A DNA stretch of 64,000 bases from Mytilus trossulus (taxonomy: Eukaryota): contig NC_086385.1 in assembly GCF_036588685.1 (NCBI RefSeq), positions 25,195,216 through 25,259,215 of the forward strand. The letters run 5' to 3'. The position numbers were made by a program, and so were the translations under genes. The notes under the pieces were generated by a model. The model made no database searches, was not told where the DNA came from, and was given only the letters and a program-made list of their open reading frames with translations. Of the stretch, positions 19,131-51,997 are shown piece after piece; position 1 is the stretch's first letter; every line of letters begins with the position of its first letter.

Positions 19131-20611
19131 AGACATACAGTCAAAACTCACTTTAGACGTTGGAGGCTAAGTGGAAACGCAGGTCTGTTACTTTAAATTT
19201 GTCTCGTAATGATTAAGGGCCCAGTCAGTTATAACCCAATTTGGAACTGAGAAGAACTCAAAGGGTGCCTTAAAAAATTGCGGTATCAAAAAGGGTATCA
19301 AATTTTTCAACACTTAGAAGGCTTTTGAAAATACAAAACTAGTCCAATTCTGCAGGCCTTTTTCGAACAATCGTGCAAGACGAAAACCAATTCAACAAAT
19401 ACATTTAATGGTAATTCGAGTCATCTGCACACGTATCTGTAGCATTTCGTTCAGATGTTATATATATATATATCTTCAGGGGCGGTAGGACCTTTTTCGG
19501 GACGCCTTTATTTTTTGCGGAAATTCGGGAGTGGGACTTTATTTTCACAGGAAATCGGGATTAACCCTTATCGGGACTCGGGAATTAATGATTATTTTTT
19601 CCGGTCCCTAAAACGAATGCTTCATTTTTTCGGAAATTCAGGATGACACCCCTTACTTACGCCTCTTTATCGTGTGTCATCAATGTGTTCTTTGAGCTTA
19701 ATTTCAATATGTAGTTATAAAGCTCCTGACATATTTGGGCATATAAACCTCCTTGGCTTTCAAATTTAAGGTTTGACCGTATTGATGAAGACAAATCCAT
19801 AAAAGCACTGATGGCACAGGAAATTATTAATTGATACTACTAATATTTGTTTCCTAAAATGATTGATCGCAAAATCATGATCGAATATCTATAACAACGA
19901 TTAATGATTGTAACTATGAGTTAAAATGACATTTTTTACATCTGTTTTAGTGTGAATTATTTTTTCCCTTGGCCTACAGAGGAGAATTCAGGTTGAGACA
20001 CACCTTACCCGTCGCTACTGACTTGTCTAAATCTATTATTTGTGACATAAAATATATCTTCCCAGCTTGCTCTGCTCATCCCAATTGTTAGGGTTACAAC
20101 TCAACTAAAGTAATATCCTCAATTTTAACATGTAGCAAAGTATGTTGATATGATGTACAGGATGAAAAAAAAAGAACGAAAATGCGATAAAAATGAACGC
20201 AGATGATGTGGGTAAAATGTCAGTAAGACTATAACATTTAATCCCTAGAAATCCCCGAAATATTAGTGCATGAAGTCCTGGGTCTACTACTGCTGCAATC
20301 TTCTATTTGAATATTAGAATTTGAATGCACGTATATTTCGTTATAAAAATAAGGATATTTAATGTTGAAGGGCTGCAATTGTTATGTTATTGGAAGGAGT
20401 GTCGTGAATTTTTTTTCAAGGAAGGGGATTGAACATAAATCAAGAAATTTCAATATCATCTCCCAGGTCCTTCCGATGAAAGAAATTGACGAGTCCTTAA
20501 GATATGGTTGTTCAACCTTCAACACATGAACGTCGTGTGCCGTAGAACGACACTTTGTGACGAATTTGTAAAGAGAAAGATAACTATCTAGTAACAATCC
20601 GTGAAAAAACA

Positions 20612-23461
20612 CTACTTTCTGGTAGTTGGGATAGCATCATAAGGCCGCTGCTTCCTTGCAAACGATTTTAATCGTGCCTCCTTAACAGTAAACGGTGATG
20701 TTCCGAACATAAGGCAAATAATTACTTCTATGATGTCCATGTTCTGTGTCTTCATACAAAATCGGGCAAAAACGTCCGTTACATCTGAGAATACTTCTAA
20801 TGTCTGCCAAGCTGACCCCGTCACTTTCCGGTGAAATGCTGACACAGTGTTATACCCACTTAATGCATGGAAGAAAGGAAAAGCTGCATCACGAGGACCA
20901 AACGAATTTGATGTGAAATGTACAGGAAGCCATCGACAGTCTTTATTCCTTTAAAAACCTATCAACAATTTGTCAACACCCTATCTTGCTTGTATAAGTA
21001 CTGCAATTCCTAATACTACTACTTTCTATGTCAGTACTACTTAAAATTACTTTTTACAACAATTTTCAGCAGCATACTTATCATGGCCTATCATTCGTGT
21101 ATCTGCATTTTCATGGTTACAAGGAGATGGCTAGGAAATATCCGTATTGAAATTGCAAAGAATATTTCCACCGTGAGTAGCATAAACATTTTCATTAGTC
21201 TCTAAAGAAGCAATTCTATCGGCAAGAAACTTGAAAATTCCGTTTTGTTGTCATCTTCACACAGAAAAGTATTCCAAACCCTTGGCGTTCTACCAGAATC
21301 AACAACTTTCCGTCTAGCACCAGTACTTTCCCTTTTTCGTCCCAGCCTTTAAATAAATAATTTAGTAATCATCAAATCGATGTTTACTCTTGGATACTTA
21401 TGGAAGGAAGATTTCATGTAAAGCAGTATGATATCATTTGAATAATCATCAAATATGTTTGCCTCAAGTGGTGGCAATAAATTAACCATTGCTGCCCCAG
21501 CAGCGATAAATTCGTCAGAATTTGGATCATTTGATGGCAAATCGTTTCAAGTATACCCATTTGCTGCAATTTAATACCACATCCTGACACAAAGACGGAG
21601 TAGCAGTTTGGTTTTCATGGCTAACTAAGAAATGAAAAGTCTAGAAAAGAGCTCGCAATCAGTGTTCAGGTTCTCTAGCTTTGTTTTTTTGACAAAGAAG
21701 TTTTAAGTTTCATTTAAAGGCTTTTATAGGGACACGTTCTTTTTCATCTGGGTAAAAAAGCAGATTCTCCTTTGTTTTGCATTTGCTTCAAAAGATCGTA
21801 CTGTTTGGACCAAATATCTTAGAGTTTATATACATATCTTACCTACTACTATGAATCACCAATTTCCTTAAAAGTGTCATTTTTTTTTATAAATCTGACA
21901 ACTCTTCTTGAAATGGATTTCCAAACTCGTTCATCCTTTTAGAAAGCCGTTAAAGTGTTTCGAAGAAATCCTTTTGTGTTTTCGTATAGTTTTCATGACG
22001 TCGTTCATTTGTTATAGAAAGACTCAAATCACTAAGTCTAAAACTAAAACTACTGACTTCTGGTCCATCTACCATCCATCGTCTCGAAGTGATCTTCGAT
22101 TAAATGTATGGTACCAACATCGCCGTTCACGACTCATTATTTTGTATTTGTGCCTGATCAATTGTAATATAAGAAATCAATTGCAACTTGCTGGTCTTGC
22201 GTACAGTAAAAATTACAATTTGCAAATTGCATTGCCACCCGTGGGGGATATTTGGGAAGGGAAGCAATATCTTTGAGATAGATCGGTAACCATCGAGCAT
22301 TATTTACACAATCAAGACCAATATTGGTATTATGCTTGACATGGACTGTTTGTAAAGAACGATATATGACTCATGAAATCAGCGTAATTACTGCACATGC
22401 ATGACATGTCTAGGCACATGAAGTTCTTAATTCATATGACTCTCTTTCCTTTCACCCGTTGATCACAAACTTGAACATCACACAGTCATGAACTATATTT
22501 TCTGTGTTTACGCTTTCAATACGGCTGACATTATCGATTCTTGAAAGCAAACCACATGCAATTATCTGATGTGCTTGTCTATTTCGAATTACATTTGAAC
22601 ATACATGAAAATCATTTGTCATTCTAGGTGTTGCAATATTGGCTTCCGTGAGGGCACATGTCCTTCCACTTTCACGCAATATATCACTCAGAAGCCATTT
22701 TAATGTACACTCCACCAAATATGACGATAAACTTATGTTCTCCGTACAAATCTTGCCATTCCAACTGAAATTGCTAAGCCAATATCAAAGGGTTTATCTG
22801 CAGCTATAATTGATGTTTCTCCGATATTTTAGAAAGTTAACCACCTTTTTCACCTTATCCATTAAATGCTTGATCTTTGCAACTGAAAGGGCGTGTTTTC
22901 AAACAGTGACATCAAAGAAGTAACACTTTATACTCAAACAGAAGAGCATAGATGCTTAGAGGAATGAATGACGACAAAGATATGTTTAAAAAATTCAAAT
23001 CCTTATCTGTTAGATGTACTACGATTTCCATCATTGTGCCATTATTAATAAAAGTTTGCGCATGCGCGAAATTATTAAACGCATGTGTATCATAACCTTA
23101 AAAAAATGTCATCAAACAAATTCATAACATCATTACAAATTCAAAAGCGATAATTATGTAATAAATAGTTCAAATGTGAATTTTGTAACATTGTCACGCA
23201 TGTGCAAACCCAGAACATGTCAAATATTCATTTCTAGTATACACGTCACGTGTAAAGAAGATATCCACCAAACCTGATGATAAAATTACTGAAAGAAGGT
23301 CAAAGAAAACCTTTTCTTTATAATTTGAAAAAAATGAAATTTTCTTATGGCCAGCATTTTTTTCTCAAAAAGTAAATAATAATGATGCTTCGTGCTAATT
23401 TTCATGCTTGTATCATCATTTGCACAATTCGCTTGATTTTGCTTGCTTATATCGTCCACTA
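20612..23461 (-). mobile_element. Decayed Academ element, family 2 (5' TIR intact, 3' end missing)
   Basis: Terminus on the minus strand TAGTGGACGATATAAGCAAGCAAAATCAAGCGAATTGTGCAAATGATGATACAAGCATG matches the left TIR at 34536. Relic motifs: FFHALSGYNTVSAF, ARLKSFARKQRPYDAIPTT, DILRESG.TCALTEANIAT, RQAHQI. Confidence 0.8.
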
Positions 23462-23686
23462 CAATGTCCACGAGATGATGAATTATATGTTAAAAATGGT
23501 TATTTTGAAATCTCAGGAAGAGATTTTGTATGAATTTATAGGGTTTGCTATACTTACCATGAAATTACATTAATATTATAAAGAATATGTTTGCTTTCAC
23601 AACATGTTCTCATCGCAATTGACTAGGTGATTAAAAATTACCTCCATAAGATGTACTCAACTACGCCATAATTTACCTGTGTAAAA

Positions 23687-32673: not shown

Positions 32674-34535
32674 AAAACATGACCTTGTGCAATGCTAAGA
32701 TACGGGTATCGACAGACTGTAGAACTGTGAAGGTGCATATGTATATAAAAATAATATTAAGTTTGATTTTAATTTACTGATAACAAAATCAATATCAATA
32801 CCAATAAAAACAATATTCAAAGACTAATAACAGTGTTGAATTGGTAACCTTTTAGAATAAGTTTATTTAAAGGATCGATAAGTTCACCTGGATCGTTTCT
32901 AAATTTCCGGGCTCGGTAAACAACCTCTCCGTAAAAATTAGGATGTGTTATCCCGTTTGAAATAAGTTTTCTACAGGTACAACCAAACTCCAAAACCAAA
33001 TCTTTATATCGTTGGAAGAATTTAGTAAAGGTTTTAAGTAACTTGTGGTAACGATATCCCTGACCTTATAATTTACCAGTATTACACAGATTACGTTCAT
33101 TGAAATCCAAAACGTAACAACAGACACAGGCATAGCAAACGAGTTGTGATATATAAACACCGTAATATGGTGCCAAAGGAACATCACCGTCCAAAAAAAG
33201 GTTAATTAACAATAGGGAACGAAAAATCTTCCCATTTGTCGTAAATTTTAGTGTAGAGTTTTCCGTGTAAATCTGAAATATCTAAATCTAGGAAAGGACA
33301 GTTATAACCGTTTATATTTGATTTATTCAAAGTAATTTCCTTTAGGTAAATTTCGGCAATATATTTTGAAAGTTATTGTTTAACTAACGACAAAAATATC
33401 ATCAAATTAACGTTAAGTGTTGTGAAATTTATAAATTAAATGTCATTTAGACGGGTCTTTACTGAGTTTGGTCATAACCTGTGATTCATAACAGTACAAG
33501 AACTAATCTGTTATGAAAGGGGCGCAACTGGTGCCCATAGGAATACTTACAACCTGTCGATAAACTTCATTACCGAAACGTACATAAATATTATCAAAGA
33601 GAAAATTAACAGCTTCAATCCTCTTATCACACCCCTAGTAAGTATGTCTAGCATATTTACATTTCTCATTTGAAAAGAAGGCTTTAAATGAGTTGCAGCA
33701 AATATATTTGCATTCAGATTTACCAAAGGAAATTATCCAAAACATCCAAAGAATTGTTTACACTCCAAAAATAGTAAATTCCACTATTTTCATATATTTT
33801 ATTACAAAAGTTAATGATACGTTCCTTGATAGCAGTTAAGGAACTCGTTAAAAGCACTGAAACATTAGTTGAAGAAGCCGAGATGAAACGATATTTAACT
33901 GGTTTTTTGTGTAGTTTAGGTAACCAATACATAGTTGGGACCTTCAAATGTTAAGAAGAGGCTTTAAGCTGTGGTTGTGAGATGTTTGATATATGACTCT
34001 CTGTGGAGCGTACGGACTTGAATGTAGTAGATTTAAAATGTCATTCTTAAGAACGTCCTTGTAGTATTTACGGCATACCACCACCACATTGTTGACTGCT
34101 TTATCGACTGGTACAAACACAAACTGCTTTGAAAGTGCATGAAATTTGTTTCTTATTCTAGAAATAGGCGAATTTTACGTATTCTTTTATTTATTTCTGA
34201 ATTATTTTCAAAATGTGATTTTCGAATATCCACAATATTCATACATTTATTTAAAAAAGAATCAAGAGATTTCTTATCAGATTTTCCCCGTTTACACCAA
34301 TTATTACAATTAGATGAAAGAGCCTCTTTTGTGACCTGACGACAATGTTTCCAATCTATTTAAGATGGAGGACAATATTTTGGTCCTATTTTCAAAAAGT
34401 GTTTAACCTCTCGGTCTTGATGAATATTGAGGTCCCCCGTAATAAAATGGCCATAAGGATCACATCTTAAATTTGACGGTTTACAGTGTCAAGTTAGAGG
34501 AGTATTATTTTCTACATTGACGTCTGATGTTACTG

Positions 34536-37500
34536 TAGTGGAAGATATAAGCAGGCAAAATCGAGGGAATTGTGCAAATGATGATACAAGCATGAAAATT
34601 ACCACAAAGCATCATTATTATATACTTTTAAAGAAACAACTGCTGGCCATTAAAAAAAATCATTTTTTCAAGATGGCCATCGCCGTTTTCTAAAATGGCT
34701 GTTTTTTTCAATTTGAAAATACTGATTTTTTCTGGAAAACTTTTAGTTTACCTTCTTTTAGTGAATACCAGCTATCAGGTTTGGTAGCTACCTTCTTTAC
34801 ATGTGAATAATTCACTAGACATGAGTATTTGACACATACAGGGTTTGCGCATGCGCGAAAATGTAACAAAATTAAAAAAAAATATTTTAACTATTTACTA
34901 TAAAATAAGTTATTTGGGATTTTCAATGATATTATGATTTGGTTTGATAACATTGTTCAAGGTTATGACACACATGATTTAACAATTTTGCGCATGCGCA
35001 AACTATTCATAGATATAATGAGTGATTTGTATACACTACCAGGGCAAACTGGTATAAATCGTAGTTCATCTCATTACTCTAAAAAGCAAGTAAGTGTAAA
35101 ATCTATGATGCCACTGTTTAAAAACAAGCCAATTCAGTTGCAATGATCAGGTATTTGATGAATAAGACGGAAAATGTGGTAAAACCGAGAAAAACATCAA
35201 TAGTAACGGCAGATCAGCCACTTTTGGTAATGGATATTCAGTGGGAATTGCCTGATATGTACAGAGAAGATAAGTTTATCGTCATGTAAGGTGGATTTCA
35301 CATTGAAATGACTTGTTATAAAACTCTGGGTGATATATTACGTGAAGGTAGATGGACACATGTGTCACACATGTGTCCTCACTAAAACCATTATTGCAAC
35401 ACCTAGAACGGCATATTCTTGTATGTATGTTCAAATGTACCTAGGACTAGACACGCGCATCAGATAACTCTATGTGTTTTAGCCTGAAAAGTATATATCG
35501 GCTTAAGAAAGCTAAACACAGAAATTATAGTCATGTCATGACTCTGTGACGTTCAATGATTTGATAGACTGAAAATAAGGTCATCTCTACCACAGTTCAA
35601 TTCCTGGCGTTCAATTATAAAATAAGAACTTCTTGTGAACTTTGTAGTATGCTTATTTCATGAGTCAGATTGTGTATTAACAGTCCATATAAAGCATGAT
35701 ACTGCATTCACTTAGGTCTTGATCGTGTAACATATTCCCGATCGCGACCGACCTTCTCCGAGATATGGCTTCCCTTCTCTCAAGTCACCCACAGGTGGCA
35801 ATTGATTTTTAAAATGATAATTTTACTGTACGTAAGAACAGAAAATATTTTTCTTATAACACAATTGATCAGACAAAAACAGAATAATGCAATTGTAAAG
35901 GGCGATGTGTTGTCATAGGTTTAACCGAAGATCTCAGTAAGACGTATTGATGGTAGCTAGACCAGAAGTCAGTAGACTATCAGATAAATTTGCAAGATCT
36001 TGTGGTTTGCGGCATTCTATAATAGATGAACGACTTAATGAACACACAAGGGTTTCTTTAAAAAGATCAAAGGCAAATGATTTGAAGATCGTTTGAAGCA
36101 AATACAAAACGAAGGAGAACCGGTTTCTTATAACCAGATTAAAAAGAACAACTCCTATAATGTCGGTAAAATAAAACTGAAAACGTTTTTGTAAAAAACA
36201 AAGCTAGAGCTCTTAGATATCTTTTCTAGACTCCTATTTTTTGTCGCAGTGGACAAATTGATTTGGAATATTTCTTAATCCATAAAGACAAACTGCTACC
36301 CCGTTATTTTCTTCGGATGTCATTTAAAACAGTGGCATTACATCGGTGCAAATGGATAAACTTGAAACATTTTGTAATTTGCAGATCCAAATTCTAACGC
36401 ATTTATCGTTGATAGAGCAGCAATGGTTATTTCCAGGCCACCTTGTAGGATATCAATATTGGATGATTTTGCAATTGTGTTATACGGCCTTAAATAAAAT
36501 CTTGCATCGATAAGTATTCAAAAGTAGATATTGTGTCAGATTTACTAAATGAATCATTGAAAGGCTAGATGTGAGAAGACAAAAGTTGGGTTCTGGAGTT
36601 GTTTTCTCTTTGACGATGACAACGAAACGAAATGTTTCAAGTGTCTGGCCGACAGAAATGCTTCTGTAGAGACTAATAAGGATACTTTCCAGCTACCCCT
36701 TGTAAGCATGGAGAAGCAGATATACGAATGTTTGTCCATGTTCGGCCTGATTATGGAAATTGCTGTAGGACGGTAATTTAAGGTAGCACCGACACAGATG
36801 TAGTAGTATTAAGAATTGCAGCACTCCAAAAATATGGTGGAACAAACTGAATAGGTTTTGGCAGGAATGAAGACTTTTGATGAATTCCTGAACGTGAATA
36901 TCAAATGCGTTTGGTCCTCGTGTAGCTACTCTTCCTTTCATTCATACATGCAGTGCATGTGACACTAAGGAAATAGGTCAGTTTGGATGACATAGGAAGT
37001 ATTTCAACATGTAAGGGACGTACTTATTTCTTTGCTGAATTATAAAGACACATACAAGAACATAAAAGAAGCATTTGTTTGCATCATGTATGACAGAACA
37101 AGATCACTATTTGCTGTTAACAAGGCACGATGTACATTTTTACCCAGGAAACAGCGGCATTGTGATGTAGTTCCGCCTACAAGAATTTTTTTTCGGAGCA
37201 CATCCAAAGAGCAGCGTATCAAGGAGGATAAGTTTGGGCTCTGCCAGATTTATGTACCGATTCATGAACACTGGGGTTAGATGAAAGAAAAAAATCGAGG
37301 ACTTCTTCGGCTACCGTTAAAGTTGCATCCTCCTGTCGGGAACTTTTGAGATGAGGAGGCGAAAAATCCAGTTGTGTTGGTGACTGTAAATGCTACCGTT
37401 CTGTCCTTCCTTGCACGAGTTTTGTTATTGGCTACTGTCCGATAATTTTAAGATAACGAACCTGTCTTTCTAATAAAACTTGGCATTTGATCTTAACAAA

Positions 37501-41925: not shown

Positions 41926-43907
41926 GTAAATATTAGAAAAAAATAATATCAAAAGAGAAAATTAATATTGACTGACAATAACCTTGCAGACAGAACACTA
42001 ATTGAAAGACGAATGGTAAAATATTAACACAGATAAAGACAGATTGAATGCCATAAAAAAGGAAGGGCTTACAATTGTTAAGGATGATACTCATCCTATT
42101 GAAAAGTGGTAAATGTTTAGGTTTAAGACGCTGCAAATCCATAAAGTATCGATACAACTAAGTAAAAGATCGATTCATGACATTAAAAAAGTGAAACAAA
42201 AATACCGAACTCAAAGGCAAATTCATAAAGGGGAAGTCCATAAAAAGTGACAACGCCATCAATAAACGGAACAGGTGAAAAACAACTTCCATTTTCCTTA
42301 CAATTCAAACGAGTAAACAAACGGTCTAATGTATATGCAAAACGAGAAACGATAAACACCAGCAAACGACAACCACTTAGCAACAGACTCCTGACTTAGG
42401 ACAGGTGCATATAAAATGCATCGGGTTTAAATGTATTAACAGGCGCGCCAACCCTAACCCTATTGGCTAACCTGACACAGTCTTGTAAGATAACATCATG
42501 ACACTGAATACATAATTACATTCTGTAAAAAAATATTGAAAATAATTTAACTCAACTAAAAAAATCGATTTAAACTACCCAATGAAAGCCTTATACATGC
42601 TCTCACACAGAACATCCTGGGACCAAGTAAATTTACATGTACATATCTTTGAAGTCTTGTATATCCAGTTTATGTTTCTTGAATCAGAAAGTTATGCTGA
42701 TATTGATTTTTTCTAGTGTTAAGTGCATACACGAATAGTGAGCCAATAAATGAAATAACGGTCAAATGTGGAATCTGCATGACACCATTTTTTGTAGAAG
42801 GAGACAGAGGAAATTCTGCCAAAGTGGCATATTTCAAGCGCAGCCAGTTATATAAAAAAAAACATTCATTATGACATACATGTTTTCAATTTCACTGCTT
42901 TGCTATCAGATATTTGAAATTCAAATAATGCTTTTCACAAACCCAGTAATGGCAGACCCGAGAGGAGCTGTTGCGTATTTTGACTAAGGTTTTACTTTAA
43001 ATAATCTGGTCAGAGATTGACAGAATGGATACAAATATATATATATGATCTTCAAAATGAGATAAATAGTTGATATCGGTTTCCTAAAATTGAAAGGATA
43101 TGTACTATACAATAAAAATAAAACAACATCAAACCTAGTACACACTATGAGATCAAAATAGAATGGAACACACAATTATTATAAAAATACTACAACATTT
43201 GCAAATAACGTGGCACAAATACATATTGTAAATAATTAAGCTATTGTTGTCCCACTTTGACGGGCAAGACAAAAATATGTTGTTCCTGATGGCGTCGGCG
43301 GTCAATACGTCAACAATTTGTTAAAGTTTGTGATTAGGCCAGTTTAAAATGAACCACTTATTGTAGGTCAATGATATCTGGTGCGCAGTTGTATTGGCAC
43401 ACCTCATTTCTATAGAGACAATTTGGCCCCGCTCCTTCAGTCATGATATATTGACTTTGAAAGTTTTCCATAGCGTCGGCACATCGTTTAATGACTTTGG
43501 ATTTTTTTGTATGGCTTAACTGTTAAAGATTATTGTTAGGTTAGTGCAAGGAGAAACTAATAATTTTACGTCAATAATATTTGGTATGTATTTATGTTAG
43601 CATTCGCATATATCATTTCCAACACGGCTGTTTTGCCTCTCATCTTCAGTCATGGTTCATTGACTAGGAACTTTTCCGTAGTTAACATATTAATATTTCT
43701 AAGTTATATTCTTATAAATTGGTTCTTTTAAATGAAAATTCACATTAAATATCTGCATTCCTGCATCAAATTTTGCTTACTTGATAGAAAATATGGACCT
43801 AAGATTCTCTGTTTTTTACAATCCAAGATGGCGAAAGACACCCATACCATCTTAAGTGTTGCAATTTGAATTTATACAATTGCATACAACTATCAAAATT
43901 CCATTAA

Positions 43908-44088
43908 GGTGAGACATATCTCTGTGTCAACAGTTTATATACACTTTTGGGTGAGACATATCTCTGTGTCAACAGTTTATATACACTTTTGGATGAGACA
44001 TATCTCTGTGTCAACAGTTTATATACACTTTTGGGTGAGACATATCTCTGTGTCAACAGTTTATATACACTTTTGGGTCAGACATATA
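43908..44088. repeat. 42-bp minisatellite, about 4.3 copies
   Basis: Unit GTGAGACATATCTCTGTGTCAACAGTTTATATACACTTTTGG, near-identical copies. Confidence 0.95.
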
Positions 44089-45338: not shown

Positions 45339-48300
45339 ATGAAACAAATCCAGATGAAATGGACACCGAGTTGTACGGTTTATCAAGTACAGTGGTCGCC
45401 TTTAAGTATTTCGGATGAGCAATTAAACAGAGATAAAAGAAATCAACATGAAATTGAACACAATGAAGATGTTAGTTCCACTGAATCTAATGATCTAATG
45501 ATTCCGATGTTACTCTTTGTACCCGGTCTATAAGTCAACCCTAGACATGAATATGACAGTGATGTGACAGAGTTTCACAATACAGTGGAATTTCTTGGGG
45601 GAAGACAAACAGCAAATTTCATTAGAGGTCCCATGTGTCATTCACAAGAGTCTGCCTATCAAAAGGACCTGTCAAATCACAAGATGAACTTAGAAGGACC
45701 AAGTCGTTCAGTAAGACAGTTAGTGAAAGGGGACTTTACAACCTCAAATGGAGTAATTGGTAAATTACTGAGTACATTTCTACAACTTATTAATAGCAAT
45801 GAAAGCGTAGAACCATTGCTCACAAATGCAATTACAAAATGTACTGAGGTCTATTCGGTGTGTCTGGCGTTTGATGGAACAGCACTAAAGACTGGATTTG
45901 AGGTCGACGATAGAACTAAACGAGCAATAGGAGGCAGTCTGGATTATGATGTAGTATACATAAAAGCAAATCCAGATCCGAAACCAGGAGATCTGAGAGG
46001 GAACATTTTCACAGAGGCTGTCGTCTCCTATTTGACTACATTATGCAACAAAGTAAGCAGTAGCTATTGATTACCTTACAAAGGCAGGAAAAACAGGAAC
46101 CTTTATGAAAGAATTATTCATTAACACAATGCTCACATGCCAATTATGTCTACACTGCCTCGAAGGCGTCGAGTACGTCGACAATATTGTCAAATATAAC
46201 CATGAATGCAGCTCCATTTGTGAAACATGTATACGTGAATCAAAAGTATGTGATCATTGTATCACAATTGGCAAAACTAGTATCCATCCTTCTCTGAGGT
46301 CCTGCAGAAAATTTGTAGAAGATAAAAAGGTTTGCATAAAGTGCTCAGTTTTAGCCTTGACATCGGACTGTAAATCTTGGAACAAAGTTGCATTGGAGGC
46401 TTTGAAAAAAGACAGAGGATGGTTCCGCTCACCCATTATTGTCTGTTCTTTCGATACTTCCTGACTGCGTCCATGTTGGAAAATCAATCAAATGCAGTTT
46501 TTTAAATTGTTACCTGCTTTTCAACAAGGAGAGGGCAAATCTGTCTATGCTCCACACGCTTAGATGTTCGACAAAGACTACGGAAATAGTCGATTGTGTA
46601 AGAACCAAAGACAGAATGTCTGTTGACACTGTTCTAAAGATCAGTAGTACGGCAGTCCGCGACATTCTGCGATCAGTAGATTTGATTGTCCATAACATGA
46701 TACCTAAACGTTTCAGACCTACTGAGAACAACAAACCAGGAATGTACCCACACCCAATTGCCATCGCGTGCAACAACCTATGTAACATTGTGTTCTGTGA
46801 CATTAACGCACTAAATAAATCATCAAGTATTTTGAAAGCTAGATTTCACAATCATGTGAAAATACAAGAGCTTCAAACAACATAAATTACTCAATGTAGA
46901 AGTTTAGTAAATTTAGCTGGTATATGTTTTGTATGCCAGTTTGGTATAAATATATTAGTTTTTGGATTAACCCGAACCGTCGGTTTATCATTAAAATCAT
47001 TAAAGTCAAAAGTCAAACTAAAGAGTACGGCTGAAACCTTCAACTTTTCAACAGAGGGTACAATATTTGATTTACGCAATCGCATTGAAAACCATCTGAA
47101 AAATGTTGAACAATCAAGACCCCACAAGAATGAACTATATATGAATGAAGACATCCAGCCGGGGATTATAACAAAGGCAGCTGAAGACATGATGTTTTGC
47201 AGTAGTGATGCAAACAGACTTGTATATCAAATCAACATTAAAGCGGATGGGGTTGGTTACAAGGGATATGCTGTTAATCTGTGTACGTATCCGAACCAAT
47301 GTTCGCGAATTCTTGATCTATGCTGCTCTGAAAACCATTTATATGCTTCTTGGAAAGGCTGAGATGGAAACGGGGAATTAATGGTATTCAATTTAGACGG
47401 GTTAAATGTAGTTAATGTATTGCAAAACAACACAGATGACTGTCAAGAAATTTATGGTCTAACTAAGTTCAGAAACGGAATAGCTTTTACAGATACAAAA
47501 GCAAAAAAGATCAAACGCTTTACAGCCGAAAATACAATTGTCATTGCTGGCACAGGGATCGAGGGATGCTCAGTTGGTTCGGCTTCACATTCCACATTCG
47601 GACAGCTCATGGGTATTGCATGCGAGAACGCTACACATAACCGTGTGTGTGATGGTCAATTTGGGTCGGTCAAACTAGTCACGACAATTAGTGGAACTAT
47701 TCCCTTTCTAGAAAGTTTACATAAACTTTACTTTACCTTTGATATTCATGCAAAAGGAACAAAATCACCAAAAGATATGACAATAGAAAACATTGCAGGT
47801 ATTAAGGACGCACTCAATTTATTTGAAAATGCTGAACAAAATGTAAAGGACCTCACCAATCTAACAACAACAACAAAATGGACCGGAGGGAACAATTTCG
47901 TTGAGAACCATGTAGTCAGTTGTACTGTCACATTCTTCAACAAAACGTCTTCTGGAAAACAAAGTTCTCACAAATCCATCATACACATCTAACATGCAGT
48001 CTTGTCTAACAACTGTTGTCGAAACCTTCATGTTGTCAGTCATGTTAAGCAGAACCTTCCAACAAAGCTCCAATACTTTAGGGATTCGGGACAATCTTTA
48101 GAGAGAGCGTCAAGAAGATAACTAAATGGTCCGCCTTCTATTTTACGAAAGAGTCCTCATATTATCCTATTCCAAAACACAGCGTAAGACTCTTATCAAT
48201 TTCGTCGTTAGAAAAAACAGACCAAATAACTGTAAGTCGTGATAACCTAAATCAACTATACACATGGAAAACAGTATTGCAACACCAAATTGAAATTGAA

Positions 48301-49930
48301 ATTAAAAAAACACTTTTTATTTTTTTGTGATATACTTTGGTAAAATAGAACAACTTAAACATCATTTAAGTATCATCTGAGTTTAATCAATAAATATCGA
48401 CTCGGTAAGTTTAACTGCACATGCAGCTACTGTACCCGTAAACTGCAAAATAGATGTTTTCATCCTCATTGTTTTCAACACTTTAAATAACAAAGTTTGT
48501 GTGATTGACACCTTGTAATGGGTCCTTGTCAACTCCAAATTGTAGCAAGATGACAGATTATTATCAGCATGAAAGAAGCAGGGATGTCGCTGTAACAACT
48601 TCACGTATTGTTGGTCATCACCATTCCACTATAAGTCGTTTTGAGATTAAAAAATGGCACTAAACGATGTTAAAGACCTTCCGAGATAAAGAAGACCCCC
48701 TATACCATTTGCTAGGGAAAATCAAGCATCATAAAGGTTGGTCTGAAGGTAACCCATTGCATTCAATACAACCCCAAAAAGAGAGTGCTGGGCATACAAG
48801 AGTCTTTTAACAAGAACTGTTTGAGATCGACTCATCGCTACTAGTTATCGTGCGATAAGACCATTTTGGAGACCTTTGCTTACGAACAGACACACAGTTT
48901 TTCGTATCCAATGTAGTGCAGAGCTTACTAAAGTTGAAAATTAGCATCGTGGAGGAAGATTCAGTGTTCCAATGGAATTCGGGTCATCTTCTTTGGACGG
49001 ATCTTAGCCCATATTTGAACCATATCGATCATATGTGGGACACTATTGGGTGGAAAGTGTGCGAAAGGACACCCCAATTCAAACACATCATGAAAAAACA
49101 ATGCCCTTCATCAGAAATGGTTGCTGCTACCTAAGCAACAAATTAGGCCATTTTTGGCAGGAATCAGAACACGTTAAGATGCGGTTATCCGTTTGAATGG
49201 AGGCTGCGCACAAAGTACTAATTCTTTGGCGTATAACGATCAACCATGATGTGAATAGTCATCTGAAGATTAATTTTGAAATGTCTGACATTGTAAAGTT
49301 CGACTACTGTCAAAGTTGTAAAATGCATTTTTTTGGACAAAAAAACACTTCATTTTGTTATTAAAATTGTGGTTATATAAATCATTTTTTTTTCAGACAT
49401 TTTTTGTTCGTTTCAATGTCAATGTTATCATAAACTATGTTTCAATAATATCATACAAATATCTTATTATATATCATCCAAAAAAAGAGGCTGATTTTTC
49501 AAGTTTTGAAAAATCAAGGTGTTGCAATACTTTTTTCCATGTGTATATATGAAAGGGCAAATACACACGGAAAGTGTGTACGACAAAGAACCGTTCGACA
49601 GGAAACGACAGCATACAAATATGGTACTCTGCCTCTTAACATGTACCAGATGTCAAACTAGACATGCACATCAATAGAAATTCATCACGAACCAACGATG
49701 GAAAGCTAAACAGAACATCCGGTTCAAAGGCATACGGAGGATGAATAGGACAAAGATCCATCATATAACGATAATGACAACGATGATTCCGATACTGAAA
49801 ATGCACATCACCAAAAAAAACACCAATAAACAATACTTCAGTTCCTGAACTTAGTTTCATGGTTAAGAGAAACATATCTAGATCTGGTCGAAACCTCAAG
49901 ATTTCTTGTCGATTGAAGGATTGCTATTGA
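45339..49930 (+). pseudogene. Decayed P-element-like (TNP/THAP9-type) transposase with an inserted NHL/beta-propeller region, split by a Tc1 element
   Basis: Collinear fragments: FLGGRQTANFIRGP, VCLAFDGTALKTG, Cys-rich CQLC..C..C..C, LALTSDCKSWNK, LPDCVHVGKS (DxxH), KDRMSV, then YPHPIAIAC...IAFTDTKAKKIKRF...IAGTGIEG..VGSA....FGQLMGIA (NHL-like), NGPEGTIS, TTVVE/NLH, TKWSAFYFT..SYYPIP. After the Tc1: GKCVRQRTVRQETT..YGTLPLNMY, an acidic tract and SRSGR. Many stops and frameshifts. Confidence 0.6.
48261..49543 (+). mobile_element. Tc1/mariner element, internally deleted and decayed
   Basis: 26-bp TIR CACATGGAAAA(C/A)AGTATTGCAACACC with TA at 48259-48260 and 49544-49545. Relics: QIIISMKEAGMS, VGHHHST, DVKDLPR and LSPYLNHIDHMWDTIG (SPDLNPIEHxW motif). 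Confidence 0.9.
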
Positions 49931-51075
49931 CGTTTTTAAAACAAGTTCATAGTCTATGAAGGAAATATTTCTGTAATGTTACATTCTTCAACATAACGTC
50001 TTCTGAAAATCATAGACATATAATCTGTCGTTCTTGAATGTATTTCAATGTAAAAAAGAAAAAAAAAAAGAAACCCTGATATGATACATTTCACTTTCGT
50101 ACAATATAAAAACTAAAATACAAATTTGTAATAGGGTCAGTCGTATAAATTTTAAAATATATTAGTCAAATCTAACGTTTTAGGACAGCATAAACATCTT
50201 CACATACTTGAATTCCGATCAAGGTCTTGAGCAAAGTATGCATTTTTATTTAAATGGAGTGCATATAACGCGCCCTGCTGGAGTCATTTTCGTAATGATA
50301 ACTATACTCATCACTGACTATATAACTATTGCTGTAAGTAAGCACTGGAGTTGTAAGTTAGAATATAATCGCCTTTTAAAAAGCGGACCGTGTTAGACTC
50401 CGTTCTGAATTTACAATGATTTCAGTTTTACTGTCGAAAGACGGCGTTAAACCACAACGAAATCAAACAATTAACAGATTATAATCAGCAAAGCACAAAT
50501 CAAAACAAAAACTGATGGTATTTATCAAATATATTTTTTTATCTGTCGGTTACGGCTTCAAAATACAAACTTCTTTCATTACACGCATGTTACAAAGGTC
50601 ATCAACTTTCTCCAAAGGCGTCACTATGCCCTTGCGTACTTACATTTTTATAGCAAACGTTAATCAAAAGACATATAAGGCATATACCGTACGGTGACCT
50701 ATAATTGTTAATGTTTGTGTCATTTTGGTCTTTTGTGGATAGTTGTCTCATTGGCAATCATACCACATCTTCTTTTTTATATATAATCTGACTGAAAAAA
50801 GTATGATTGACCTGTTAATCTGAGGTAAGAGGCATTCTTCATCATTTCGGGATTAATCTTTTGTCGGGATCCGGGATTTCAGTGTTTTAAGATCGGGAAT
50901 TCGGGATTTTGGCAAATAAAGTTCGATATTTTGGGATCAGAACCCCTCCTGCCCCCCCCCCCCCCCCCCACACCTTCTCTCTTACTTGGTACGGGCATTT
51001 ATAAATAGTGAATATGATCGTATAAATAAGTAATATTCAGCTGTCTGTGTTTACCTAGACTCATGTCTCAATCGA

Positions 51076-51997
51076 CATCGATACATTGTTCATCCATCTA
51101 TTTATAAGTATGGTAGTATAAATAAATGTACAGTGAACATCATCGATACATTGTTCATCCATCTATTTATAAGTATGGTAGTATAAATAAATGTACAGTG
51201 AACATCATCGATACATTGTTCATCCATCTATTTATAAGTATGGTAGTATAAATAAATGTACAGTGAACATCATCGATACATTGTTCATCCATCTATTTAT
51301 AAGTATGGTAGTATAAACAAATGTACAGTGAACATCATCGATACATTGTTCATCCATCTATTTATAAGTATGGTAGTATAAATAAATGTACAGTGAACAT
51401 CATCGATACATTGTTAATCCATCTATTTATAAGTATGGTAGTATAAACAAATGTACAGTAAACATCATCGATACATTGTTCATCCATCTATTTATAAGTA
51501 TGGTAGTATAAAGAAATGTACAGTGAACATCATCGATACATTGTTCATCCATCTATTTATAAGTATGGTAGTATAAACAAATGTACAGTGAACATCATCG
51601 ATACATTGTTCATCCATCTATTTATAAGTATGGTAGTATAAACAAATGTTCAGTGAACATCATCGATACATTGTTCATCCATCTATTTATAAGTATGGTA
51701 GTATAAATAAATGTACAGTGAACATCATCGATACATTGTTAATCCATCTATTTATAAGTATGGTAGTATAAACAAATGTACAGTGAACATCATCGATACA
51801 TTGTTCATCCATCTATTTATAAGTATGGTAGTATAAACAAATGTTCAGTGAACATCATCGATACATTGTTCATCCATCTATTTATAAGTATGGTAGTATA
51901 AACAAATGTACAGTGAACATTATCGATACATTGTTCATCCATCTATTTATAAGTATGGTAGTATAAACAAATGTACAGTGAACATCATCGATACATT
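51076..51997. repeat. 65-bp minisatellite, 14 full copies plus 12 bp
   Basis: Unit CATCGATACATTGTTCATCCATCTATTTATAAGTATGGTAGTATAAA(T/C)AAATGTACAGTGAACAT starts at 51076, 51141 and so on to 51986; only point variants, no spacers. Confidence 0.97.

Follow-up and report, generated by a model that had tools for sequence, protein, structure and literature searches.

In this study, we found that a 64,000-nucleotide stretch of the Mytilus trossulus genome (RefSeq assembly GCF_036588685.1, contig NC_086385.1, forward-strand positions 25,195,216 to 25,259,215; hereafter the window, which lies on contig C13 of the 1.3-Gb genome) contains a dead copy of a real, recently mobile transposon lineage of mussels. 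The region from 45.5 to 49.9 kb of the window consists of fragments of one long gene on the + strand, which encode a transposase with a P-like catalytic core, a Cys-rich module and a predicted six-bladed NHL-type beta-propeller interrupted by a SAP motif. There is hardly any room for doubt that the lineage is one of transposons, most likely of the cut-and-paste kind, and the fold of its transposase is very probably related to that of the P transposase. With some reservation, we favour reading the window copy as a broken, left-end-less member of this P-related lineage, in which the propeller-SAP insert would replace guanosine triphosphate (GTP) in holding the transposon end and the target DNA at the active site.

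The original prediction, made from the letters of the window alone, proposed the P-type motif order D, D, DxxH, DRMSV and E, and all of these motifs were located on the + strand where it had placed them. They comprise AFDGT (45867-45881, with the first catalytic Asp at 45873-45875), the Cys block (46138-46344), TSDC (46360-46371, second Asp at 46366), PDCVHVGK (46460-46483, DxxH at 46463-46474), DRMSV (46610-46624), TTVVE (48009-48023, with the catalytic Glu at 48021-48023) and, in a frame that differs from that of TTVVE, NLHVV (48023-48037). The pieces are collinear with one intact 1011-amino-acid relative at 40-54% identity, rising to 80% in the last short piece. From 45540 to 46058 the copy encodes a helix-turn-helix (HTH) region and the first RNase H strands (54% to the intact protein), followed by the predicted zinc-binding Cys-rich module with its 10 conserved Cys before the second Asp (46138 to 46344), the second Asp, DxxH and the first half of a P-type insertion domain (46360 to 46684), a propeller of ~335 amino acids (46685 to 47690, with two stops and with the SAP motif at ~46990-47105), and the frameshifted second half of the insertion domain with the catalytic Glu (47691 to 48260). 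The C-terminal remainder, with an RQRTVR motif, an acidic tract and an SRSGR tail, lies at 49546 to 49891, behind a nested insertion. The copy contains several frame changes, its longest piece has three stops, and Pfam searches with 10 broken window fragments gave nothing above the cut-off. Two further parts had been missed in the original prediction, namely the SAP motif and an upstream + strand exon at 42710 to 42847 encoding the CxxC half of a C2HC-type zinc finger (tblastn with the exon of the intact element: 50% over 46 amino acids, E 1e-11). This exon is also present in three sister copies, and RNA-type contigs of the intact family show splicing of its counterpart.

A search with 100 amino acids of the window retrieved 10 places in the genome, five on C13 and five elsewhere. 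The C13 copies share flanks over tens of kilobases at ~88-98% identity, and several of the alignments break at the same two positions, which argues that one dead insertion was multiplied by segmental duplication. The probable order of events is that the window copy became defective and only afterwards reached five copies on C13. This five-copy duplication involves window positions 19141-58995 and C13 24.9-25.8 Mb, with insertions and deletions specific to individual copies. On C1 and C2, in unrelated flanks at unlinked sites, are two elements, 10,756 and 10,724 bp long and identical to 99.6%, each with an open exon of 1193 codons and with a single difference in 3579 nucleotides between the two exons. 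These copies supply an intact enzyme that recently moved a 10.7-kb element. Intact open reading frames (ORFs), 1118 codons long on C3 and 1088 on C6, show 34-36% identity, and a copy of the lineage on C7 is frameshifted.

The original prediction left it undecided whether the gene belongs to a transposon lineage or is a domesticated derivative, and only the first of these has held. Derivation as a host gene domesticated from a P element is very improbable, and for the lineage as a whole it is already refuted. It would fit the C6 ORF (C6:17633198-17636461), which is intact over 1088 codons and has no recognisable ends within 40 kb, and it would fit the splicing and transcription of the intact family. 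Against it stand the dispersed copies with ends and target duplications in three families, the broken state of the window copy, the position of three mussel families in different parts of the tree, and the two M. coruscus relatives of the C6 type, which lie on different contigs. Rather than single-copy genes lacking terminal inverted repeats and target duplications, we found multi-copy homologues with ends for the C1, C3, C7 and window families. The C6 ORF, with M. coruscus relatives at 93-95%, is itself a candidate orphan or domesticated copy. An empty-site check, in which contigs of four DNA runs were compared with one derivative, gave no joint across it among the matches listed, in which the flanks were poorly covered. 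A neighbouring P-like element gave no match with hidden Markov models (HMMs) in the 6 kb examined.

The ends of these elements differ from the CA...TG terminal inverted repeats with 7-8 bp duplications that had been anticipated; in this lineage they read GAG...CTC and the duplications are of 6 bp. The C1/C2 element begins GAGGGGGGGCGAGA and ends with the complement of it, and its two copies are flanked by TATATT and AATGGT. Searches with its two ends gave 33 and 40 matches, of which 30 each were examined and 22 could be paired. Both termini were called in 21 pairs; an exact 6-bp duplication flanks 11 of these, and 13 show it when one mismatch is allowed, compared with 8 of 420 cross-pairs. In a scan of short elements that did not preset the length of the duplication, this was exactly 6 bp in 15 of 21 cases, 4 bp in one and absent in five (three loci overlap the set of 21 pairs). 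The same kind of ends delimits an 8.7-kb element on C3 and a 4.9-kb element on C7, flanked by ATTATT and CTTAAT, respectively, and four derivatives of the C3 element have exact 6-bp duplications. Thus GAGGG...CCCTC ends with 6-bp duplications are common to three divergent autonomous-type families and to their miniature inverted-repeat transposable elements (MITEs). As a control, canonical P elements of M. trossulus showed CA...TG ends and 7-bp duplications in both copies with two ends and distinct flanks; a second canonical P family gave no usable flanks.

Among 33 target sites chosen for an exact 6-bp match, 168 of the 198 duplicated bases are A or T, with C before the duplication in 13 sites and G after it in 14. 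Since both extra flanking bases occur together in only four of the 33 (neither occurs in 10), an 8-bp reading is excluded. As regards the original suggestion that the propeller could guide targeting or regulation, the only preference seen is (C)-AT-rich-(G), and no shared target locus type or long sequence was seen among the 33 sites. Inside the termini, each family has a subterminal word of its own, CGGGA (11 and 5 at the two ends), CGTGA (7 and 5) or CTGTTA (8 and 5), and in all three families every repeat is on the + strand at both ends and none on the - strand. Outside Mytilus, none of 77 metagenome loci and four prokaryote-bin matches examined for duplications had both ends of one copy; in several of these 81 loci, a lone left end of the GAGGGG type or right end of the CCCCTC type is accompanied by repeats.

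The P-like catalytic core is borne out on intact relatives. In an alignment of 93 rows, with the covering rows as denominators, the catalytic residues are nearly invariant: D156 in 67 of 68, D322 in 71 of 72, D/E355 in 76 of 76, H358 in 74 of 76 and E882 in 56 of 57. The Cys-rich block noted between the first two Asp is likewise nearly invariant, with all 10 Cys kept in 64 of the 68 rows that span both Asp, and it is absent from canonical P ORFs of M. trossulus. On the intact protein, XP_063412869.1, PF21787 matched above the cut-off (E 7e-6). A structural model of the 1011-residue protein had a predicted local distance difference test score (pLDDT) of 91.9 and a predicted template modelling score (pTM) of 0.88. 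Since fold searches with the whole model were dominated by propellers, the N-terminal half was folded alone (pLDDT 93.3). The Foldseek comparison with P transposase suggested at the outset, run on this half, gave Drosophila P transposase as the best match (6pe2, E 3.8e-8; 6p5a, E 1.7e-7), with the next unrelated match at E 9e-3. Structural alignment to 6p5a gave Z 12.4 with a root-mean-square deviation (rmsd) of 4.3 over 261 aligned residues, covering residues 151-418, and the next Z was 6.2. A language-model search also points to P transposase for this half. RAG1 (Foldseek E 9e-3, Z 5.1, rmsd 6.0) and Transib (Z 4.4) fall far under P, and Hermes, a hAT transposase, was matched only at E 0.2. 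A single-sequence search of solved structures gave no match, and profile searches returned only propeller and SAP matches and no transposase.

The propeller that the original prediction placed before the catalytic Glu was recovered by fold match on the intact relative, where residues ~433-772 of the model form a six-bladed NHL propeller (Z 24-26, rmsd 2.4-3.0 to NHL propellers). Its best profile matches are SOQ1 and NHLRC2, with E of 1e-22 to 1e-27. The SAP motif lies inside it, at ~540-580 of the model, and Pfam SAP matches were found in relatives. When the part behind the propeller was aligned by hhalign to canonical Mytilus P, the match had a probability of 75% and E 2.6e-5 and placed Glu on Glu, and the propeller aligned to nothing. 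As its flanks match the insertion domain and it is itself unmatched, the propeller can be placed in a loop that joins two helices of the GTP-binding domain. Consistent with this, the distance from the DRM/MKV motif to the Glu is 454-523 amino acids in 40 of 43 rows, compared with 135-149 in 8 of 8 canonical P ORFs. The shorter spacing in the other three rows reflects fragments or likely gene-model gaps, and no intact relative without a propeller was seen. The most distant rows of the alignment end in ExxFsxxR, as in canonical P. At the other end, no THAP match was found in the five proteins with a long N-terminus that were searched; a CxxC...H..C finger is seen instead.

That the propeller binds RNA like the NHL domains of TRIM71 and Brat, for RNA-guided targeting or for autoregulation through the element's own transcript, is improbable. 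NHL structures of TRIM71, some of them with RNA bound, are among those tied for the best fold match (Z ~24), with a profile E of ~1e-10; however, all six-bladed NHL propellers score alike, SOQ1 and NHLRC2 score far higher by sequence, and no long sequence is common to the 33 target sites.

Fly P transposase is described in PMC7776569 as the only transposase that uses GTP, bound in its insertion domain; the contacts given there include K400, D444, N447 and D528, and the GTP is bonded to the G at the transposon terminus. Of these residues, D444, N447 and D528, together with F443, are kept in human THAP9 according to PMC10824691. In canonical Mytilus P ORFs, the motifs MKV, FFDCLN and QDPLE are present all three in 6 of 8. 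When the contact columns were mapped onto the propeller lineage via these canonical motifs, a mapping that could be off by a few positions, the K400 column held D or A in 71 of 73 rows, the N447 column G or S with Asn in 3 of 61, and the D528 column mostly L, T or V, with no Asp among the seven commonest letters of 56 rows; the D444 column is varied. The transferred end of the lineage is C, in contrast to the terminal G that pairs with GTP in P. Because the aligned GTP-contact residues are replaced, the lineage transposase likely works without GTP, as far as can be judged from aligned sequences. As a separate observation, M. trossulus also has divergent canonical-type P ORFs with altered FFDCLN motifs (L155 and L163).

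Considering the above, the transposase may act as follows. The N-terminal zinc finger and HTH would bind the one-way subterminal repeat word of each family, the RNase H core would cut and join with a 6-bp stagger at AT-rich sites, and GTP would not be used. The propeller-SAP insert would substitute for GTP in positioning the transposon end and the target DNA, possibly by clamping DNA or bridging subunits, by analogy with the RAG2 propeller and RAG1. That the propeller takes over this positioning role is at best somewhat probable. Conserved basic residues occur in the SAP motif and in the first propeller blades.

Alternatively, the propeller may serve in protein docking, either by anchoring the transpososome to a host protein of chromatin, repair or the cell cycle or by regulating its stability, with catalysis being independent of GTP or using GTP differently. 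This rather unlikely alternative would agree with SOQ1 and NHLRC2 as the closest sequence matches and with a propeller that evolves fast, yet is retained in each family, whereas the SAP motif and the conserved basic residues point to nucleic acid, and the target sites show no locus type in common beyond the (C)-AT-rich-(G) preference.

Several points weigh against the preferred reading of a P-related transposase whose propeller stands in for GTP. Regarding the propeller itself, SOQ1 and NHLRC2 are not known to be DNA binders; among the folded parts, it is the one with the lowest conservation (26-29%, compared with 36-42% for the N-terminal core), and its few conserved surface-type residues would fit a scaffold as well as a DNA clamp. 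Regarding the GTP site, Asp is kept in the D444 column in 14 of 61 rows, and the possible offset of the mapping applies to all contact columns. Regarding the fold, the clustering of the D/D/E residues is deduced from the pTM of 0.88 and the alignments rather than from measured distances, a plain HMM finds nothing in the C-terminal part after the propeller, and the canonical P profile is thin (8 ORFs), the C-terminal match to it being moderate (75%). Regarding the ends, 8 of the 21 paired ends lack a duplication at the called termini, some of them due to miscalled poly-C ends, and the target duplications of the lineage were measured in a single genome, that of M. trossulus.

The right end of the window copy lies near 50,970. 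It had been suggested at 50407, which is no longer tenable, as copies at four other loci align straight through this position. Three of these loci continue collinearly from the 3' region of the gene to 50797-50926, and it is here that a C-rich end with CGGGA repeats, typical of the family, is found on the + strand (50797 to 50970; nhmmer E 2e-15). Motif, blastn or nhmmer scans that covered the window, three of the four sister regions, extended upstream, and five related loci revealed no left end of the window copy. The element at 19478 to 19663 (+ strand) was considered as this left end; as it carries its own right end, it was read as a separate, decayed MITE of a related family with both ends present. 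It belongs with an abundant MITE family of 140-210 bp with the ends GAGGGGGGATAGGA and 6-bp duplications, whose autonomous partner is probably a member of the propeller lineage close to the window family. A likely mover of an abundant mussel MITE family can thus be named.

The + strand insertion that splits the gene at 48261 to 49545 has inverted ends and a TA duplication and is missing from all four sister copies on C13, in agreement with the nested Tc1 proposed originally. It is taken to be Tc1-like on the basis of these ends and of a motif, and Pfam gave no Tc1 match in the two fragments scanned. Other repeats were also noted. A 65-bp satellite occupies 51076-51997, just past the right end, and is much longer in one sister copy; a 42-bp tandem repeat lies at 43910-44077, within an intron of the element; and a further repeat is represented by two decayed copies that face opposite ways, at 20846-23686 and 34534-36966, the latter in an insertion absent from one sister copy.

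In contigs from four RNA-type runs, the type of which was guessed, three exons upstream of the long exon are spliced to it at GT-AG introns, and it is this splicing that argues for the four runs being RNA. The spliced contigs differ from the intact family at 14 of 3236 bases. Spliced contigs from runs that carry three different organism labels match the intact family at ~99.6% identity, and the family is near-identical in M. edulis, the protein of which was compared by inspection; this near-identity hints at recent spread by hybridisation or transfer.

Searches for homologues gave 36 matches for the N-terminal half and, at E up to 1e-30, 201 cluster representatives, which include some unrelated NHL-repeat proteins. 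Named hosts are Mytilus species, Priapulus caudatus, the corals Oculina, Porites and Montipora, and also Paramuricea. Three very distant members (P0056, P0064 and P0069; 24-26% identity) keep all inserts. In a tree made without the inserts and without an outgroup, for which six of 37 full-length rows were set aside because they were partial or near-duplicate, 31 propeller proteins are separated from five canonical P proteins by one very long branch (100/100), and the three mussel families are scattered. Four matches to the propeller lineage, one with a typical left end, come from prokaryote genome bins and are likely host DNA in those bins. Viral contigs gave none among 56 candidates.

No description of this architecture was found in the literature searched, a search that covered neither Repbase, Dfam nor supplements. 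New here are copies that are both intact and recent, together with the termini, the 6-bp duplication, the orientation of the repeats and the mapping of the GTP site. Novelty, though not mechanism, would be affected if this were an ordinary family of the P superfamily that Repbase or Dfam already lists as P or as unclassified, its extra domains unremarked, which we consider somewhat unlikely. In UniRef, the M. edulis protein bears the automatic name of a P transposase-like RNase H domain protein, and curated bivalve repeat libraries exist, among them that of PMC10294476, which may contain the propeller family; on the other side, 6-bp duplications, GAG ends and the lack of THAP lie outside the descriptions of P consulted, and a very long branch parts the lineage from canonical P. 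It is tempting, albeit with the balance slightly against it, to regard the lineage as an undescribed sister group of P at the superfamily level, old yet active to this day in marine animals, which would have dropped GTP and acquired a built-in RAG2-like propeller as an independent origin of a recombinase-plus-propeller pair, with 6-bp duplications, one-way repeats and an intact expressed copy. A P relative that keeps the fold, has its GTP contacts replaced and ends in C, with a propeller placed in the GTP domain, makes the purpose of GTP, and what may stand in for it, directly testable. Furthermore, termini and duplication length delimit superfamilies, and a P-like enzyme with 6 bp widens or splits the P group.

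Several known systems share single features with this lineage. In RAG1-RAG2 and Transib, an RNase H recombinase with zinc-binding inserts, a six-bladed propeller partner and asymmetric ends are likewise found, RAG2 being a kelch propeller that works with RAG1. In contrast, the mussel propeller is of NHL type and inside the same chain, which makes the likeness one of analogy and not of kinship. Transib and RAG-like elements have CAC termini and a 5-bp duplication, whereas the mussel ends are GAG and the duplication is 6 bp. IS3EU, Dada, Ginger and Polinton do have 6-bp duplications, but their transposases are not P-like and their ends differ; the length of the duplication is what they share with the mussel lineage, whose fold is P-like. 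The propellers of SOQ1, NHLRC2, teneurin and TRIM71 share the six-bladed fold and the IAG-G-G-DG-A-F-P-G repeat signature, whereas that of the mussel lineage is interrupted by SAP and embedded in a transposase. The hAT duplication is 8 bp according to PMC4122938, compared with the 6 bp of the mussel lineage.

The closest resemblance is to Drosophila P, THAP9, Galileo and 1360, with which the lineage shares the HTH, the split RNase H D/D/E, the D(2)H motif and the helical insertion domain in the same order, as well as short terminal inverted repeats, internally deleted derivatives, MITEs and introns. The P superfamily is characterised by CA...TG termini, seen also in canonical P of M. trossulus, by a requirement for GTP and by 17-nucleotide staggered cleavage. 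Its duplications are of 7-8 bp according to PMC3698922. To the common plan the mussel lineage adds the 10-Cys module before the second Asp and, in the insertion domain, the 335-amino-acid NHL propeller with SAP; unlike P, it has a C2HC finger rather than THAP, replaced GTP-contact residues, GAG...CTC ends, a 6-bp duplication and subterminal repeats in one orientation at both ends. Because it departs from P in four defining features, namely THAP, the GTP contacts, the termini and the length of the duplication, we place it outside P, as a P-related lineage that is P-like in its working and not as a member of P.

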